A stretch of DNA of 64,000 bases from the NCBI RefSeq assembly GCF_963676685.1, contig NC_092354.1:74152001-74216000 (forward strand), written 5' to 3'. The notes beneath the pieces are model-generated. The model ran no database searches. It saw nothing but the letters and a program-made list of their open reading frames with translations, and had not been told where the DNA came from. Positions 5,901 to 63,366 of the stretch are shown one piece after another. A program made the translations under genes and the position numbers. This stretch comes from Mytilus edulis. Its lineage: Eukaryota. Every line of letters starts with the position of its first letter. Within the stretch, counting starts at the first letter, position 1.

Positions 5901-6943
5901 AGTACTGCGTGAGAGAAAAAGCATAAAGACCACATTCTGTTTTATTATGATAAATGCATTTTTTTTAATCAATTTTCTGTTAAATTTACTATGAGATAAA
6001 TTGAAAGGGCAAATAGGTGAAGTTTTTTTTAAGGAAATGAAAGATAGAGTCAAACGCTATTATGCCAAGCATTTCCCTGATTGCAATAACAACAAAAATG
6101 CATGTGTGCATACTAAATTGCACGATCTTTTTGTTTATTTTTTTTAATTTTTTTTTTTTAACTTTCTTTCGATTTTGATAACGCTTTTGACTATTCAGAT
6201 TAAGTATCACAATCTTCAAATACAGAAAAAGTATGTAAAAAACGTTTATGAAGCCACAAAGACAAAAGGTAACGCTACATTCTGCAAGGAATTAAATGAG
6301 GAAGATATATGTTCGATATTTTGAAATATTGGTTTTTTTTTTAAATTTTGTACAAGCAAATATTAAAAACTTAATATTAGTAATGAGGTAAAAAAAAACA
6401 AGTTTGCGTATAACGGTTTAATCAAGATGTGAAATGAAGGCTTAGCAAATATTTACATTTATTAAAAGCCTTATGTCTTGCTTTTCAATTTATCGTAAGT
6501 AGTGATATCATACAATACAAGGATGTATTACTAAGGAATTACAGAGACTAGTAAAACAATTAAGAAATGTACCGGTAACCTCTCTTTTAAAATGATTTAC
6601 TTGATATTTAAACAAGCAAAGCCAACACTAATGCCTTTTTCAATCTCCAGTATTGATCAAAATACAACTGAATTACAAAACATATTGTGACTTTACACAC
6701 GTGCACCCATATTCTCTTGGAATTAGAGCATTGCTTGGTTTACATAGTGATTAAAGCATGTCATATTAGAATCAATGGTAACAATAGCTTAGAAAGTTTA
6801 AACTCTTTATTATTTTAACCAAGATGTTCTGACGATTGACCGTGTTTGTTAAATTCTCACAAAATTTTCTCTCTGCTACAAGAATTAAGTTTGGCAACGA
6901 TTGTGCTCTATATATGACGCATGATAATATGTTATTAGTTACA

Positions 6944-7070
6944 TGGTGTGTTAGTGACCTAATACGATATATATGGGGTCAGTTAATTCCATATGGGGTG
7001 AGAGCGAAGCTCGAATCCCCATATGGAATTTACTGACACCATTTATATCGTATTAGGTCACTAGCACACC
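6944..7070. mobile_element. Foldback/MITE-like long hairpin
   Basis: Arms of about 55 bp (ggtgtgttagtgacctaatacgatata...ccatatgggg / ccccatatgg...tatatcgtattaggtcactagcacacc) around an 18-nt loop. Confidence 0.75.
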
Positions 7071-7406
7071 GTGCAAAGACATTATCTTACCGACTATCTT
7101 CACATGTGGTATTTTGACTAGCTGCTTATCAAAGTGATCAAGTCTTCAATACTTAGTATTAAGATTCTACTTACATTTGTCTATACAGTAAACAAATGCC
7201 AACAATAACAACTTTTTAGCTTTAAATTTATATTAGGAATTTATTTCAATCATTACATGTATCAATTTCTTGGTCTGTTAAATCCTTTCAGATTTCTTTT
7301 TTGTTTGGAAAGGGAAGTTACTTCGTTATGCAAACAATAACAACTTGTTACTTTAATTATGTTTAATGAACTTATTTCAACCTTTCATCATCAATTTCCT
7401 CGTCTG

Positions 7407-7530
7407 TTCTATGTTGTGTCATGTGTACTATTGTCTGTCTGTTTGTCTTTTTCATTTTAGCCATGGCGTTGTCAGTTTATTTTCGATTTATGAGTTTGAC
7501 TGTCCCTTTTGTATCTTTCGTTCCTCTTTT
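7407..7530 (+). mobile_element. 3' tail fragment of the retroelement family seen at 32513-32947
   Basis: Near-identical to the reverse complement of about 32515-32640 and to about 45940-46060. Confidence 0.75.
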
Positions 7531-7655
7531 TTGAATCTCTTTAGATTTTACCTCAACACCGTGTCGTTTTTATAAAGGGTTGTAGCATCTTTTTTGTTTT
7601 GAAAGGGAAGCAACTTCTTACTAACGCCATATGGTAACTAACCCTTTATTTTTAG

Positions 7656-7730
7656 GACACCCTATATCAAATATACATAGTCACCACTTGTAGTCGTTAA
7701 ACCAATCAAATCTCTATAAATCTATAGGAG
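7656..7730 (+). other. Candidate non-coding (5'UTR) exon
   Basis: tttattttttag-type acceptor and GAG|gtaaga donor; stops in all three frames; lies upstream of the 10245 exon. Confidence 0.3.
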
Positions 7731-25124: not shown

Positions 25125-25901
25125 TATTTTGCCAATTATGCCCTTTTCTTTAAATTTACGCATGCCATCATTATCTTTTCTTTATTTTGGAGGTCTATAT
25201 TTCTCGAATATTTGTCCATTATTCTATATTCTTTTTTATCTTGTCTGCTTTTCTATTAATGTCATTTGTTATACTCTATTCTGTATACCACGTCCAGACC
25301 CTCATATATGCCTCATTGTTTCTTGTAGTTTTATTCAGATCAATCTATAATTGATTTATTATGGTGCTTCACCATACTGATGTCTCCATCAAAAAAAGGA
25401 AATAATTCATTTATTTTTACTGATTGTATTGTTTACTCATGTTGCCTTGGCTCTACAATGACCAGGGTCATTTCAAAGATAACACACGTCCAGATTGATT
25501 TTGTTGTTTATCTATATATTTTTGTCCAATTCATTTTTACAAATTTTATACGTATACATGATAATGTATTACGCTATTCCTAAAAAATATGAATGACGTG
25601 TTTTATATTGAAACTGCAAATTACCAGTTGCATATTACAGTTTGAAATGTAATTCATTTGGTTGGCAGTTTATCTATAAGTATAAAACAACACTTAATAT
25701 AAAAAGGTTATATTCATATGGAAGATCATGGAATGCATACCCAGAGAGTTGCAAACTATAGAATAATGATGTAGACTTTCAGATATCTTCTCATGCAAAG
25801 CTCTGATTCCTTTCACGAATTTGACTATATTTTTTGGACCTTTTGAATTATAGCTCTTCATCTTTTATATAAGCTTTGGATTTCAAATATTTTGGCCACG
25901 A

Positions 25902-25945
25902 GCATCACTGAAGAGACATGTTTTGTCGAAATGCGCATCTGGTGC
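25902..25945 (+). ncRNA. Type I hammerhead ribozyme (intact)
   Basis: GCAUCA-CUGAAGA-GACA(UGUUU)UGUC-GAAA-U(GCGC)A-UC^-UGGUGC: full core, stems I and II paired, minimal stem III with palindromic loop; predicted cleavage after 25939. Confidence 0.9.
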
Positions 25946-26132
25946 AACAAAATTAGTACCATTGATTTTATTACTACCACTGGGTCGATGCCTCTGCTGG
26001 TGGACTATTAGTCCCCGAGGGTATCACCAGCTCAGTAGCCAGTACTTCGGTACTGGCATGAAAATACGGATTTTTTGTGTTATTAAAATTTGCTGTTACA
26101 AAATATTAGAAATTATTATAAATTAAGGAATG

Positions 26133-27303
26133 AATCAGATGTATTGATGAAATTCTATCGTATTCTTTATGGGAGGTAGAAAACTTTAAAATTGGTGGTT
26201 CAAGAGTCTACTATAAAAACTGGGCAAATGCGGGAATTTGGACAGTACAAGATTTGTTAGATGACCAGGGCAAAGTTATGTCATTTCAAAATTTCCAACA
26301 AATATATCAATTTAGGCCAAATATTTTACATTATTATGGAATAGCGCACTCGCTTAATGAGTGGTTAAACACGATTAATATTGAAGTAAAGGAGAAAAAA
26401 AATCATGCAATACTACCTTTTAACATAAGTATCTTTTTTGAATAAAAAAAAAGGTTCAAGGGAAATGTACAAAGTATTGAATGAAAAATATGTTACATTT
26501 GCTGCAAAGGAAAAATGGGAGAACCATCTTAATATGACTGGTATTAACTGGAAAAAAATACACACTTCGTGTACAAAATATAGTAAAAGCATTAAGCTTT
26601 GCTGGTTCCAATATAGAACTATCCATAGAATTTTGGGAACTAATTCACTACTTTACAAGATGAAAATAAATAGCAACAACATATGTACATTTTGTAAAGA
26701 AGGACCAGAGACCATAGAACATTTATTTTGTAGCTGTCCGATGGTTGCCAGTCTCTGGCATGCACTTAACATCTGGATTTTTGAAATGACAAATATTGAA
26801 CTGCCTTTGAATATTATGATTATTTTATTTGGTATCTACGAAAATGTTAAATTGAATTTTGTTAAAAATAAGATTATTCTACTTTCAAAATACTACATTT
26901 ACAGAACAAAACTACAAGAAGTTTTGCCAAATCTAAATGCTTTAAAAAAACTATTTAAAGGAACACTTGAACTTAGAAAAATACATTTCATTTAAAAACC
27001 TCTCTGTAGATGAATATAACAAATACTGGAGTCCCTGGCCCCTATCATAGAATAAATAATAAATGTTAAAATTTGATTGAAACACAACTTATGTATACAT
27101 GTATATTGCAAGAACACATAAGATTTCAATGTTATAAGATATTTATTTATTTTCAACCTATTATTGCACCATCATATATATTCAATTGTTGTTTTATTAT
27201 TTAATACTTCCTTTGTGTGAAAATGTCATTCTGTATACCTTTGTTCATACATGTTGTGCTAATTTATTTGTTACAATAAAGAACATTCATTATAAAAAAA
27301 AAA
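26133..27303 (+). mobile_element. 5'-truncated, frameshifted L1/Tx1-clade LINE (ORF2 C-terminus, 3'UTR, poly-A)
   Basis: ORFs 26254-26445 and 26438-26995 with FQYRTIHRILGTN and zinc-knuckle CTFCKEGPETIEHLFCSC; AATAAA at 27275; A tail; TSD aattaaggaatg / aattaagtaatg. Confidence 0.9.
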
Positions 27304-27435
27304 TAATTAAGTAATGTATCTCCCTCATGCAAAGCTCTGATTCCTTTCACGAATTTGACTATATTTTTTGGACCTTTTGGATTATAGCTCTTCATCTTTT
27401 ATATAAGCTTTGGATTTCAAATATTTTGGCCACGA

Positions 27436-27479
27436 GCATCACTGAAGAGACATGTTTTGTCGAAATGCGCATCTGGTGC
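27436..27479 (+). ncRNA. Type I hammerhead ribozyme (intact, identical to 25902-25945)
   Basis: gcatcactgaagagacatgttttgtcgaaatgcgcatctggtgc; predicted cleavage after 27473. Confidence 0.9.
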
Positions 27480-28619
27480 AACAAAATTAGTACCGTTGAT
27501 TTTATTTTTAACTTTTGTTGTCTTGCTTAAATGTCTCATTGATTTATTTATAACATGCAATAGCTGTATGGGTGTAGACGGTCATGCGAGCTTTTGACAT
27601 GGCTTGGCGCCAGTCAACTTGTTCTCAAATGGCTCCTCGAAGGAATTATTGTCCCTGTATCACCATTTTTAACCATTTTATGATGTTGATTTTAGCCTGG
27701 TTTGTTAGTGTAAACTGGTTTGTTGTCACTTGGTTTCAGTGGCCATCACTAGCCCTGGTGTCCTGTCACCATATATTTGTTCTGGCTAACAGAAGTTCCC
27801 CTGGAAACTTTGTTATAACAATGTCATTATATCTGTTCCTGTTGGAACAAATATTATGTACCCTTTATTCCGTAAGGAACAGATACTGTTACAAATACTG
27901 TAATATTTGTTCCAGTAGAAATAATATGACAGAATACGTATTACACTTAAAACTTATGTTATGAATTCAACTGACAAGAAGTTATATTCCCTCAATGATA
28001 TTTTTTTTTCATTTTATGTTGGCATTGAATAGTCGATTTGCCTCTTATAAAACTGATTTTTTTTTATTGGAAAATACCTTTGAAACAGGTTATTTCTCTT
28101 TGTCAATTTTAGACTGGTACCATACTGGGCAAAATAAAAGGCTGTCAATGCAAAACAAGAATAGACTAAATGGATATATAATAATATTAACCAACGATCA
28201 TTGATAAAAAAAAACTAGTTACACGCAAAGCTTTTAGGTAACAAAAGAATAAATGGAATGAAAAGAATTGAAAACCCTAGAGATAACATACAATACGCAT
28301 AGATGCGTTTAATCTTTCTGTTGGTTCTTCGTTGTGAAAAAAATAACAAAGCAAAAACGTGTTCGTCCTAAAGGAATTTCGCGGCTTAAACAATGTAATC
28401 CTAATAACAGGATTAATGACTGATTTGCACATGGACCAATGATTTAATATAAAAGCCATGGATAAAAAGTAACTTGAATTTTGAATATTTGAGCATAGAT
28501 AGAAGCCTGAGCAAGCATCAAATAAACAAAACGGTTCCATATCATAAACAAGTTTAAGTCATATGCATATTTGTGTCTTTTTGTTGTTGGTTTGTTACTG
28601 CTTATTGACATTAGACTCA

Positions 28620-29065
28620 TGTCTCGTCCTTGTATAGAAACAAATATAAAACGCATGTCAGGCTCGTCCTTGTATAGAAACATAAATAAAACGCATGTCT
28701 CGTCCTTGTATAGAAACATATATAAAACGCACGTCTCGTCCTTGTATAGAAACATACATTGAACTCACGTCTCGTCCTTGTTTAGAAACATATATAAAAC
28801 TGAAGTCTCGTCCTTGTTTAGAAACATATATAAAACTCACGTCTCGTCCTTGTTTAGAGACATATATGAAACGCACGTCTCGTTCTTGTATAGAAACATA
28901 CATTAAACTCGCGTCTCGTCCTTGTATAGAAATATATATATAACGCACGTTTCGTCCTTGTATAGAAACATATATAAAACGCACGTCCCGTTCTATTCGT
29001 TCTATTGGTATAGAAACATAAATAAAACGCACGTCTCGTTATATTCTTTCAATTTGTATAGAAAC
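28620..29065. repeat. 36-bp minisatellite, about 11 copies
   Basis: Unit gtctcgtccttgtatagaaacatatataaaacgcac. Confidence 0.9.
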
Positions 29066-32000
29066 AGTAAGCATTAATAGATATCAAATTGTAAGATTGA
29101 TGGAACCATTTTTCAGTTGATCGTATCATTTTACATTTATTAGTGATAATCAGAAGCACTTGAGAAAGGATTACTGTCAATATTTCCGATGAAACATTTT
29201 TATAAAATGATCAGTTTGATAATCAGAAGAAAAGAATGATATATATGAACACTAAGAACATTGTAAGGGGATTCAATAAGTACCTTCTGTATATTAGGTT
29301 ACATATTCACCAATTATGTTAAAGCAAATAAAATATTTAAATTAAAATTGCTGTTTTGAACTTTTTTAAAGGTCACATATAAGGTCACAAGGTTGCCTGT
29401 CACAACCCTTTCTTCCTAAAGATATGAATATATTAATGACACGGTTTATCTTAAGGTATGCTTTGAATATAGATTATCAAAAAAACTATATTTCAATGAA
29501 ATGATTGCTATATACAAACAAGCATTTAGTATATGAATCCGCTGATGTGAGTATTAATGCCTTTCTACGATATTATTGATTGTTTTGACCTATTTTGCTA
29601 GGATTGCTGTTAATTGGAGGACATCAAATTGATGAGACAACTCCCCATCGAAGTAACAATTTATAAAAGTAAACCATTATAGGTCAAGGTACGGCCTTCG
29701 ACGTGGACCCTTGAGGTTCACACCGAACAGCAAGCTATAAAGGGCTTCAAAAATTAATAGTGTAAAACCATTCAAACGGGAAATATATATATATATGCAT
29801 TAGTTGTAAGAAAACTAGTACAACAGGCAAAATGTAAATGAAGCTAGAATCCTTCATTTTTTCACTGCATTTTGGGACTTGTTTTAACTTTTACTTGAAG
29901 TGGAACTGGTTTCTTTTACATATTGTCAAATCGAATTTTGCCAATCGAATTCGACTGAATGTATCAGACGTCTGTTTAATAAATTAATTTAATAAAGTTA
30001 TCGTCGGTACAAGACTATCATTCGAAACTATAGATCAACATTCAGGCATCTTATACGTTCAGGTATTTTACATCCAATGTTTTACGGTAATATTCTTTAC
30101 AAAGCACAAAAATATCGGCATTTACCTCTAAAAGCTAACCAAACTTATAAACAACCTTTTTCAGAAGGAATATAGTTACGATACTGTTTTCAGGTCATTA
30201 AGAATGGCAAATTTTGGTATTACTATTGATTCACTCATAGGGTGATTGCATCGGAAATAAACACATTTATTCTAAAACCAGTTGTTGGCATGATACGGGT
30301 TATGTTCTTTTCATTTATTTTATGATTGTATGATACTAAACCCCTAACAGGAGGGATTGTGCTTGATTTAAAAAAAAAACATACATAATGGCCATATAGG
30401 TTATCATGTTTCTTTCTGAAAAAAATAAATGATTTCTTGCATTTTCAAATGTTTACGATCATACCAGATAGGAACCCAATTAGTCTGAGTGGAATATTTG
30501 CTCGACAACTCGAACCTAGACTCATAATTTAGTGTTCTAATCGCTGCAATGAGACAATAGTGCTAAACATCGTCTAAAATTAGACACACTGTCTGTTACT
30601 AGAAATGGAAAGTTATAATTTCTTTGTGTTATAGTTGTCTCAATATCATTTATACAACATAACTCAATACTGTTTGTCAGATGACGTAACCATGAGGGAA
30701 TGCATACATATCAGAAGGACATTACCTTATTAGCTTAATGGTACTTTGATAATAGAAAACATTTTCTGTAAAGATTAGCTGTTTTATCAAATAAAATTGC
30801 TATATTTGACAACAAAAGAAGAGATATATATAAGAATTGAAGATTGATAGAAATTGCAATCGCAAGATTGATTACAAATGTCAAAATCTTCTTTGTCATA
30901 TTACATTCATCAATAAAGAACGGATATGCAGGGAAACGAGTAACTGTCATCTTGACCGATGTGCCATTTTATTCTGAAGTATATTTTTATAATTCTTGTA
31001 TAGAATTGCCTAGGGATATATTGTAGATTTAACAAATAAAATACCAAAGTTCAAATAGAAAGAGCCTATTTGGTAATGATCTCATATATAGGTTTTTACA
31101 GTCGATGTAATGCAAGAGAAAAGCAGAATTATTTAATTCAGTATTCATACGAATCCGGAACAAACAATTATGAAAGGGACTTTTGGTCTAAATATAAAAT
31201 CAAATTAGAAAAAAAAATAGCCTTTTCGCAATACCATTTGTTAATTAACATTGTGATATTTTTTAACAGTTTAGTCGTTCAAAAAAAATTGGAACCGATA
31301 TTTTCATGTTGAAACATTGCATTAATTTAAACCGTGAAAGCATGTGAGCATTGTACAGGCTTAACATTTTTCGAGCCACATACAAGACCAAAGCAAAATA
31401 GTGTTTAATATATAATATTGATAATTACACAAACATAACATAGTGGTCATTTATTTACTCATCTAATTTTCATATTCGCCCAAAATTGATATCTTAACAG
31501 TAAATGTTCAAATTCCATTGAAGGTCAACGTAGGTTCTAGTTTTACCTCAGTTGTTTATACCATTGGCAATATAGGTCTTACTAGAAAATCTTGACTGTT
31601 GAGCTTAACTATTGAATACTCGAACTACATGCATGTTTCTATCAGAATGTCACTCCTCCTTAACATGCATGTTTCTATCAGAATGTCACTCCTCCTTATT
31701 TAACATGCATAAGGACGTTTTTGGTGGGGTTTACTGATTAAAGAATTTTAAAAACACAGTATATAGTAATTGGCAAAATAATATAAAGGAAAGGGGAAAA
31801 TAAATAAGAGAGAATACTGGTTTTATGGAATATAACGAAAATAGATAATGATGGTCAAAATGATATGAAAATAAAAAAATAAATGAAAGACCACTCCCCA
31901 ATACCGTCAAAAAGACCCTCATTAATGTGAAGTATTATATTCTTTTTATATACTGTCTTGATACGATCCAGTAAAAAAAGAGCTTTTTATTTAGAAATGT

Positions 32001-63221: not shown

Positions 63222-63366
63222 GTTTGGATCCTCAAAGCTCTTCCTTCAACTTTGTACTTGTTTGGCTTTATAAATATTTTGATATAAGCGTCACTGATGA
63301 GTCTTATGTAGACGAAACGCGCATCTGGCGTACTAAATTATAATCCTGGTACCTTTGATAACTATA
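63222..63366 (+). mobile_element. Retrozyme family B insertion with a TSD of about 16 bp
   Basis: Flanked by tatct(t)tcatataattt at 63205-63221 and 63367-63382. Confidence 0.8.
63288..63331 (+). ncRNA. Type I hammerhead ribozyme, family B (C-A mismatch in stem III)
   Basis: GCGUCA-CUGAUGA-GUCU(UAUGU)AGAC-GAAA-C(GCGC)A-UC^-UGGCGU. Confidence 0.75.

Follow-up and report, generated by a model that had tools for sequence, protein, structure and literature searches.

We consider it very probable that the locus described here is a neutral nested insertion, in which a fragment of an L1/Tx1-type LINE landed once, by TPRT, in a dispersed retrozyme copy of about 1.5 units, and that the resulting hybrid has been decaying without being copied. 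The locus lies in a 64-kb stretch of DNA that was analysed as a whole and is referred to below as the window. An earlier, sequence-only reading had described the same locus as two intact hammerhead ribozymes between which a LINE had been captured.

Two hammerheads and a split retrozyme unit

The features of the locus are collected in Table 1. The two hammerhead motifs are identical 44-mers on the plus strand, and both are enclosed by a 183-nt direct repeat (25790-25972 and 27324-27506) whose copies differ at two positions. As judged from the sequence, each motif consists of a 6-bp stem I, the CUGAAGA segment, a 4-bp stem II, the GAAA segment and a palindromic stem III. Stem III of the monomer is predicted to have 2 bp and a 4-nt loop, and the dimer co-fold has 8 intermolecular base pairs (-27.3 kcal/mol). 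The sequence-only reading held, as a general statement on metazoan retrozymes, that the hammerheads are efficient as dimers; by contrast, the paper by Cervera and de la Pena (2020; PMC7229834) ascribes the need for dimeric hammerheads to amphibian retrozymes and describes efficient cleavage in most invertebrates.

The predicted cuts are 1,534 nt apart. Because the insert, counted from the end of the left target-site copy to the end of the right one (26133-27316), is 1,184 nt long, its removal leaves 350 nt and so restores the unit length. The two identical type I hammerheads on one strand, their cut positions and the restored 350-nt monomer, all of which had been claimed before, are therefore confirmed. 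The earlier claim of a 12-bp TSD stands in part: target-site copies do flank the insert, but they match at 11 of 12 positions, with T at 27312 where the family has G. A scan with Infernal and hammerhead models had also been proposed; the Rfam models gave no hammerhead match in the whole 64-kb window at the gathering threshold, and likewise none in 25700-27600 at E<=10. Since Rfam is silent on both motifs, their identity as hammerheads rests on the conserved core and pairing.

Table 1. Features of the interrupted retrozyme copy, in positions of the window
Feature	Position	Strand	Basis and remarks
Retrozyme part 1: 5'-truncated unit start, hammerhead 1 and unit remainder up to the LINE site	25790..26132	+	97-99% identity to a large number of 350-nt tandem units across the genome; the 5' boundary is uncertain (about 25784-25790)
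Hammerhead 1 of type I with a short, palindromic stem III; cut predicted after 25939	25902..25945	+	Sequence; no Rfam match
Structured segment of two hairpins directly 3' of the family's fixed 3' end; candidate Penelope-type RT signal	25973..26065	+	Fold; common to the second retrozyme family
Left target-site copy	26121..26132	+	Equals the family's empty-site sequence
Four extra nt at the LINE 5' junction	26133..26136	+	Absent from sibling LINE copies
5'-truncated LINE 3' fragment: last ~300 ORF2 codons and 3' UTR with AATAAA at 27275	26137..27293	+	zf-RVT, no RT domain; 94.6% to 6575-7724 of sibling copy L122
Poly(A) tail, A10	27294..27303	+	Identically placed in 29 sibling copies
Right target-site copy with a single substitution (27312)	27305..27316	+	Sequence compared with the family
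Retrozyme part 2: unit remainder, hammerhead 2 and a tail of 33 nt that reaches the fixed 3' end of the family	27317..27506	+	Repeat comparison, family alignment
Hammerhead 2, the same sequence as hammerhead 1; cut predicted after 27473	27436..27479	+	Sequence

The long ORFs and exon-like segments near the locus were examined for a host gene and gave nothing usable. A 36-bp minisatellite of about 10 copies occupies 28608-29066 of the window, 1.1 kb downstream of the locus.

The host retrozyme family and the inserted LINE

The exact 32-nt pattern of the hammerhead core occurred 3,575 times in the 1.37-Gb assembly, the reversed control pattern not at all, and cores with the loop variant of the window copy numbered 193. 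Scoring of 40 of the 1,830 candidates gave identities of 97-99% between the unit in the window and many tandem arrays of 350-nt period; the arrays are dispersed and hold from 2 to more than 10 units at this spacing. The retrozyme parts contain no protein-coding frame, just short stop-to-stop frames of at most 90 aa. Tandem repeats of 150-450 bp in dispersed arrays, a type I hammerhead in each unit and the lack of an ORF are the hallmarks of non-LTR retrozymes, and the assignment of the host to the metazoan non-LTR retrozymes, already made from the sequence, is borne out by the arrays, by the hammerhead in each unit and by the number of cores.

Among 30 fetched loci, all 23 distinct arrays had their 3' end fixed 33 nt past the cut site, whereas their 5' starts varied. 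A 3' tail end that is fixed, combined with 5' truncation that varies, is a hallmark of non-autonomous elements of the Penelope type. The double hairpin that follows the fixed end folds at -39.1 kcal/mol (z -3.59), and none of 200 shuffled sequences folded as well.

Several further observations concern the retrozymes of this genome. An ~86-nt hairpin segment (25973-26061), noted among the loose ends of the RNA analysis and by blast and folding, is common to two retrozyme families and lies directly after the fixed 3' ends of both, while their hammerheads and the remainder of the units differ. The second family is also represented in the window by a third hammerhead, on the plus strand at ~63280-63345 (core ~63280-63325), apparently a solo copy that ends near that family's fixed end. 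Separate arrays of differing divergence lie no more than 600-700 bp apart in the same orientation at L127 and L128 and also at L005, and such proximity is commoner than one array per several hundred kb would suggest. Finally, the units of a long array at G000:C11:34648965-34653803 alternate between two scores, as if a dimeric (700-nt) template had been copied.

The insert was identified by comparison with its closest relatives. Sibling copy L122, which is ~7 kb long, has an ORF1-like frame and an ORF2 with APE endonuclease, RT and zf-RVT domains (Pfam), and the best PDB match of the sibling ORF2 was human L1 ORF2p (E 3.4e-37). The piece in the window is a frameshifted remnant that retains Pfam zf-RVT (E 8.7e-10) and no RT; its frame is broken near 26445-26452, and the longest frame starting with ATG has 176 codons. 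What the sequence-only reading called a zinc-knuckle ORF remnant is thus a C-terminal remnant of ORF2, although the domain is zf-RVT and the frame is not intact. Poly(A), a variable TSD and 5' truncation, the hallmarks of LINE insertion, are all present; a crude TSD search in six other LINE loci gave plausible matches in two. The zf-RVT domain, the A10 tract and the truncated 5' end agree with the earlier description of a sense-oriented 3' fragment with poly-A, and with placement by TPRT. From its sequence we would class the insert as an L1/Tx1-type LINE, a label that covers both clades.

Compared with 28-30 distinct rows of the family, the retrozyme parts show 3 private substitutions over about 546 nt; the LINE insert, compared with the 13 closest LINE rows, has about 9 private substitutions and one insertion of 8 nt over 1,159 nt. 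Judged by these sequence differences, the retrozyme copy and the LINE insert are both young and of similar age. The numbers of private changes are too small to order the two events, but the TSD does order them. The young age would suffice to account for the intact hammerheads without selection, and it is likely that they are intact through the youth of the copy.

The history that we propose for this nested insertion has three steps. The first, suggested by the fixed 3' end and the variable 5' ends of the family, is that a Penelope-type RT would start at a fixed internal site 33 nt past the cut and copy about 1.5 units. An unrelated LINE that is not site-specific would then have nicked an A/T-rich stretch and added 1.16 kb between the hammerheads, and the observed hallmarks of this second step are the poly(A), the TSD of ~12 bp, the 5' truncation and the four extra nucleotides. 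Since then, private changes would have gathered in the retrozyme and the LINE parts alike, as is observed in both.

Transcription, copying and targeting of the hybrid

One could envision that the locus is transcribed, that the RNA is cut at both hammerheads and that ligation of the product gives, as a by-product, a circle of 1,534 nt containing the LINE remnant; this is compatible with the history of nested insertion. To look for such RNA, four public runs were mapped to 25975-28400, two of them raw (about 6% of each read) and two as contigs. The runs came from other animals, perhaps of another species, in which the insertion may be absent, and the test is, therefore, a weak one. The retrozyme parts were covered to a depth in the hundreds in the two raw runs, with unit-to-unit joints; this is a result at the level of the family. 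The junction sequence of a circle equals the tandem junction. The uninterrupted site was represented by 331 and 221 reads that join 26128 to 27313. Over the LINE part, the raw runs reached a depth of 0-8 (for run X23, 0.01 in its first LINE bin), and no read fell on the 3' flank (27514-27756) in any of the four runs. At 27284, all 11 reads of run X24 carried a letter other than that of the locus. At 27312, the family G, which is not the letter of the locus, was present in 111 of 111 reads of X23 and in 111 of 126 reads of X24, the other 15 of which do not have the family G. No read in the four RNA runs of other animals could be assigned to the window locus.

We regard the 1,534-nt circle as unlikely. 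Both cores are identical to the cores of the expressed family, the immediate surroundings of each hammerhead are those seen in ordinary arrays, and the family is highly transcribed; moreover, PMC7229834 reports in vitro self-cleavage of a cloned mussel repeat, with a rate of about 0.1 per min, and ligation of the monomer by RtcB. On the other side, only about 112 nt of retrozyme sequence precede hammerhead 1, the LINE part contains five AATAAA hexamers (26441, 26665, 27051, 27058 and 27275), and none of the RNA reads, weak as that test is, could be traced to the locus. If the locus is transcribed, then the AATAAA signals of the LINE would likely end many of the RNAs before hammerhead 2. The local MFE fold also misses the hammerhead core, with -17.7 kcal/mol compared with -7.8 kcal/mol when the core is forced, as is true of any copy.

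A wider proposal is that interrupted arrays release large ribozyme-cut circles that contain both foreign cargo and the Penelope-type start signal, so that retrozymes would be vectors that circularise and occasionally re-insert captured sequence. If this is true, then the window locus would yield the 1,534-nt circle with the zf-RVT remnant of the LINE. We think it quite doubtful that retrozymes act in this way. The two interrupted arrays that were checked (the window locus and array L124, described below; n=2) showed no copying, which hints that cargo-bearing units are not efficiently mobilised.

Another scenario is true capture, in which the LINE piece has become cargo of the retrozyme and the hybrid has been copied onward by Penelope-type or LINE machinery, or the window locus is itself a daughter copy. 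The segment from cut to cut retains the fixed start point and the adjoining hairpin, i.e. the presumed copying signal, and the insert terminates in a LINE tail, as this scenario would have it. Both junctions, however, are single-copy: a 29-nt pattern across the 5' junction and a 32-nt pattern across the 3' junction each matched the assembly once at <=2 mismatches, and the match was the window locus. The genome search for further copies of the retrozyme-LINE junction that had been suggested from the sequence thus returned this locus and no other. The LINE 3' end had 83 matches, and all 83 flanks were read; 75 of the flanks were distinct and about 58 independent, the latter after the merging of 16 flanks of one tandem cluster and of two near-identical pairs. 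The window locus was the only one of the about 58 independent sites with a retrozyme flank, and no other of the 83 LINE 3' ends was followed by retrozyme sequence. One other flank contained a 27-nt reverse match to the retrozyme, which is not a junction. Retrozyme sequence was found at neither junction of any of the 29 closest long siblings of the LINE.

The private alleles of the insert give the same answer. The allele at 27284 was found in 0 of 101 alignments and that at 26302 in 0 of 50, with some loci counted more than once, and none of the LINE copies examined, truncated ones included, shares the full set. A daughter that had been re-mobilised and re-truncated would keep the private alleles, and the earlier suggestion that the LINE machinery could re-mobilise the hybrid is, therefore, unsupported. 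The junction of the one other interrupted array that was searched (L124) is likewise confined to its own array. As these searches cover one assembly and thus one haplotype, a parent or daughter copy is possible in other animals. For the present assembly, true capture is largely refuted; we rate it as very unlikely, and the word "captured", as first applied to the LINE, is not supported.

A tandem cluster (L075-L079 and L114-L120, C6:21.18-21.77 Mb) consists of units of ~2.3-3.0 kb, every one of which holds the 3' fragment of a LINE and a retrozyme remnant of 67 bp that lacks a hammerhead. It was considered as an amplified chimera, given that its ~3-kb units hold both a LINE 3' end and a retrozyme-type hairpin, and was rejected: the two pieces lie on opposite strands with ~250 bp between them, and there was no hammerhead in the units examined. 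The cluster is a segmental amplification with passengers.

That the LINE and the retrozyme were fused by mis-assembly is highly improbable. Both parts are multi-copy repeats and the locus is known from assembled sequence, but the near-perfect TSD, the clean poly(A) end, the extra nucleotides at the junction and the private alleles in both parts are unlike the collapse of repeats. Least probable, to the point that it can be set aside, is a Tx1-type element aimed at the retrozyme: target-specific non-LTR lineages do exist, but a single retrozyme site among about 58 with otherwise unrelated 3' flanks refutes site specificity, and the two matches to poly(A) placed directly before an intact target site were both plain retrozyme variants without a LINE.

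If the nested insertion was not directed at the retrozyme, then the question is how often such an event would be expected. The site of the insertion was uninterrupted in 86 of 87 site contexts (overlapping loci were counted more than once), and the sole exception was the window locus. There are roughly 1,150 intervals between cores genome-wide, which make up about 0.03% of the genome, and the chance expectation for this LINE family to land between two cores is 0.017 (58 sites) to 0.08 (280 candidates). Such a low expectation for one LINE family counts mildly against pure chance; for the event to be unremarkable, one has to allow for the numerous other families of repeats or for a slight preference for A/T-rich targets.

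The background rate of interruption was estimated from small samples of 33 and 22 intervals. The first 100 cores listed gave 32 unit-spaced neighbours and one array interrupted by a TE (L124), i.e. 1/33 with a 95% interval of 0.08-16%, when one pair 2,697 bp apart was left out; a second and partly overlapping list of 100 cores gave 22 unit-spaced neighbours and 0 interruptions. Of the other arrays checked for non-unit spacing, L125 is a local duplication, L126 an internal rearrangement, and L127 and L128 are two separate arrays.

The array at L124 is split between exact cores by a repeat of ~650 bp (L124:1739-2396), and the same repeat also splits a copy of the second retrozyme family. Of three other places that match the motif of the L124 junction, two are a single locus that the assembly contains twice (L133/L135; 99% over 3 kb), and one has no retrozyme. 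The ~650-bp repeat is high-copy, carries a degenerate hammerhead region of the second family, and lies antisense at a homologous position of the unit in the two independent loci, L124 and L133/L135. Its insertions suggest a preferred A/T-rich target inside the retrozyme unit. At L123:1462-4970, inside a LINE copy, a 687-codon RT-like frame with a YIDD motif and no Pfam match at E<=0.01 is followed by the ~650-bp repeat (98.9%). The frame resembles a Naiad-type Penelope element and is a possible parent of the repeat; blastn gave no match between the hairpin segment of the retrozymes and this Naiad-like region. Because repeats other than the LINE also interrupt arrays, nesting is a background event, and a handful to tens of interrupted retrozyme arrays are expected genome-wide.

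Meaning of the locus and comparison with known systems

Our literature search, at the level of titles and listings for most papers, turned up no published case of a LINE inside a retrozyme. With 1.2 kb of foreign DNA between two intact hammerheads, the locus is a natural test construct, with which one could ask whether mussel arrays have their own promoter, whether the poly(A) signal of the LINE prevents circle formation, and what size of circle is made and re-copied.

The closest known system to the host is the non-LTR retrozyme of Mytilus galloprovincialis (Cervera and de la Pena 2020; PMC7229834), which that paper describes as tandem repeats of about 350 nt that carry a type I hammerhead; their copies number in the thousands, they form two related hammerhead families, and they are highly expressed and give abundant circles. 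The likeness in unit size, copy number, expression and possession of a second hammerhead family is one of description, not of clone sequence, and the window copy differs in being split by a LINE. Penelope-like elements and their derivatives offer a second comparison. The retrozyme shares with them its partial-tandem copies, the fixed 3' tail and 5' ends that vary; an internal start of reverse transcription, as outlined by Frangieh (2024; PMC11167929), fits the fixed 3' end, and Li (2026; bioRxiv 10.64898/2026.07.22.740005) argues that the retrozymes of animals are derived from Penelope as non-autonomous elements. The insertions also end in ATT, which the same sources give as the motif cleaved in vitro by the PAc endonuclease; the retrozyme differs from Penelope-like elements in having no ORF.

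The insert resembles L1/Tx1-type LINEs both in the APE endonuclease, RT and zf-RVT domains of its sibling and in the poly(A), TSD and 5' truncation of the window copy itself. Many Tx1 lineages are target-specific; the LINE family of the window is not. Nested insertions of transposable elements are commonplace, and the locus shares with them a younger element within an older repeat, single-copy junctions and private decay. The difference is that the host repeat here brackets the insert with two self-cleaving motifs.
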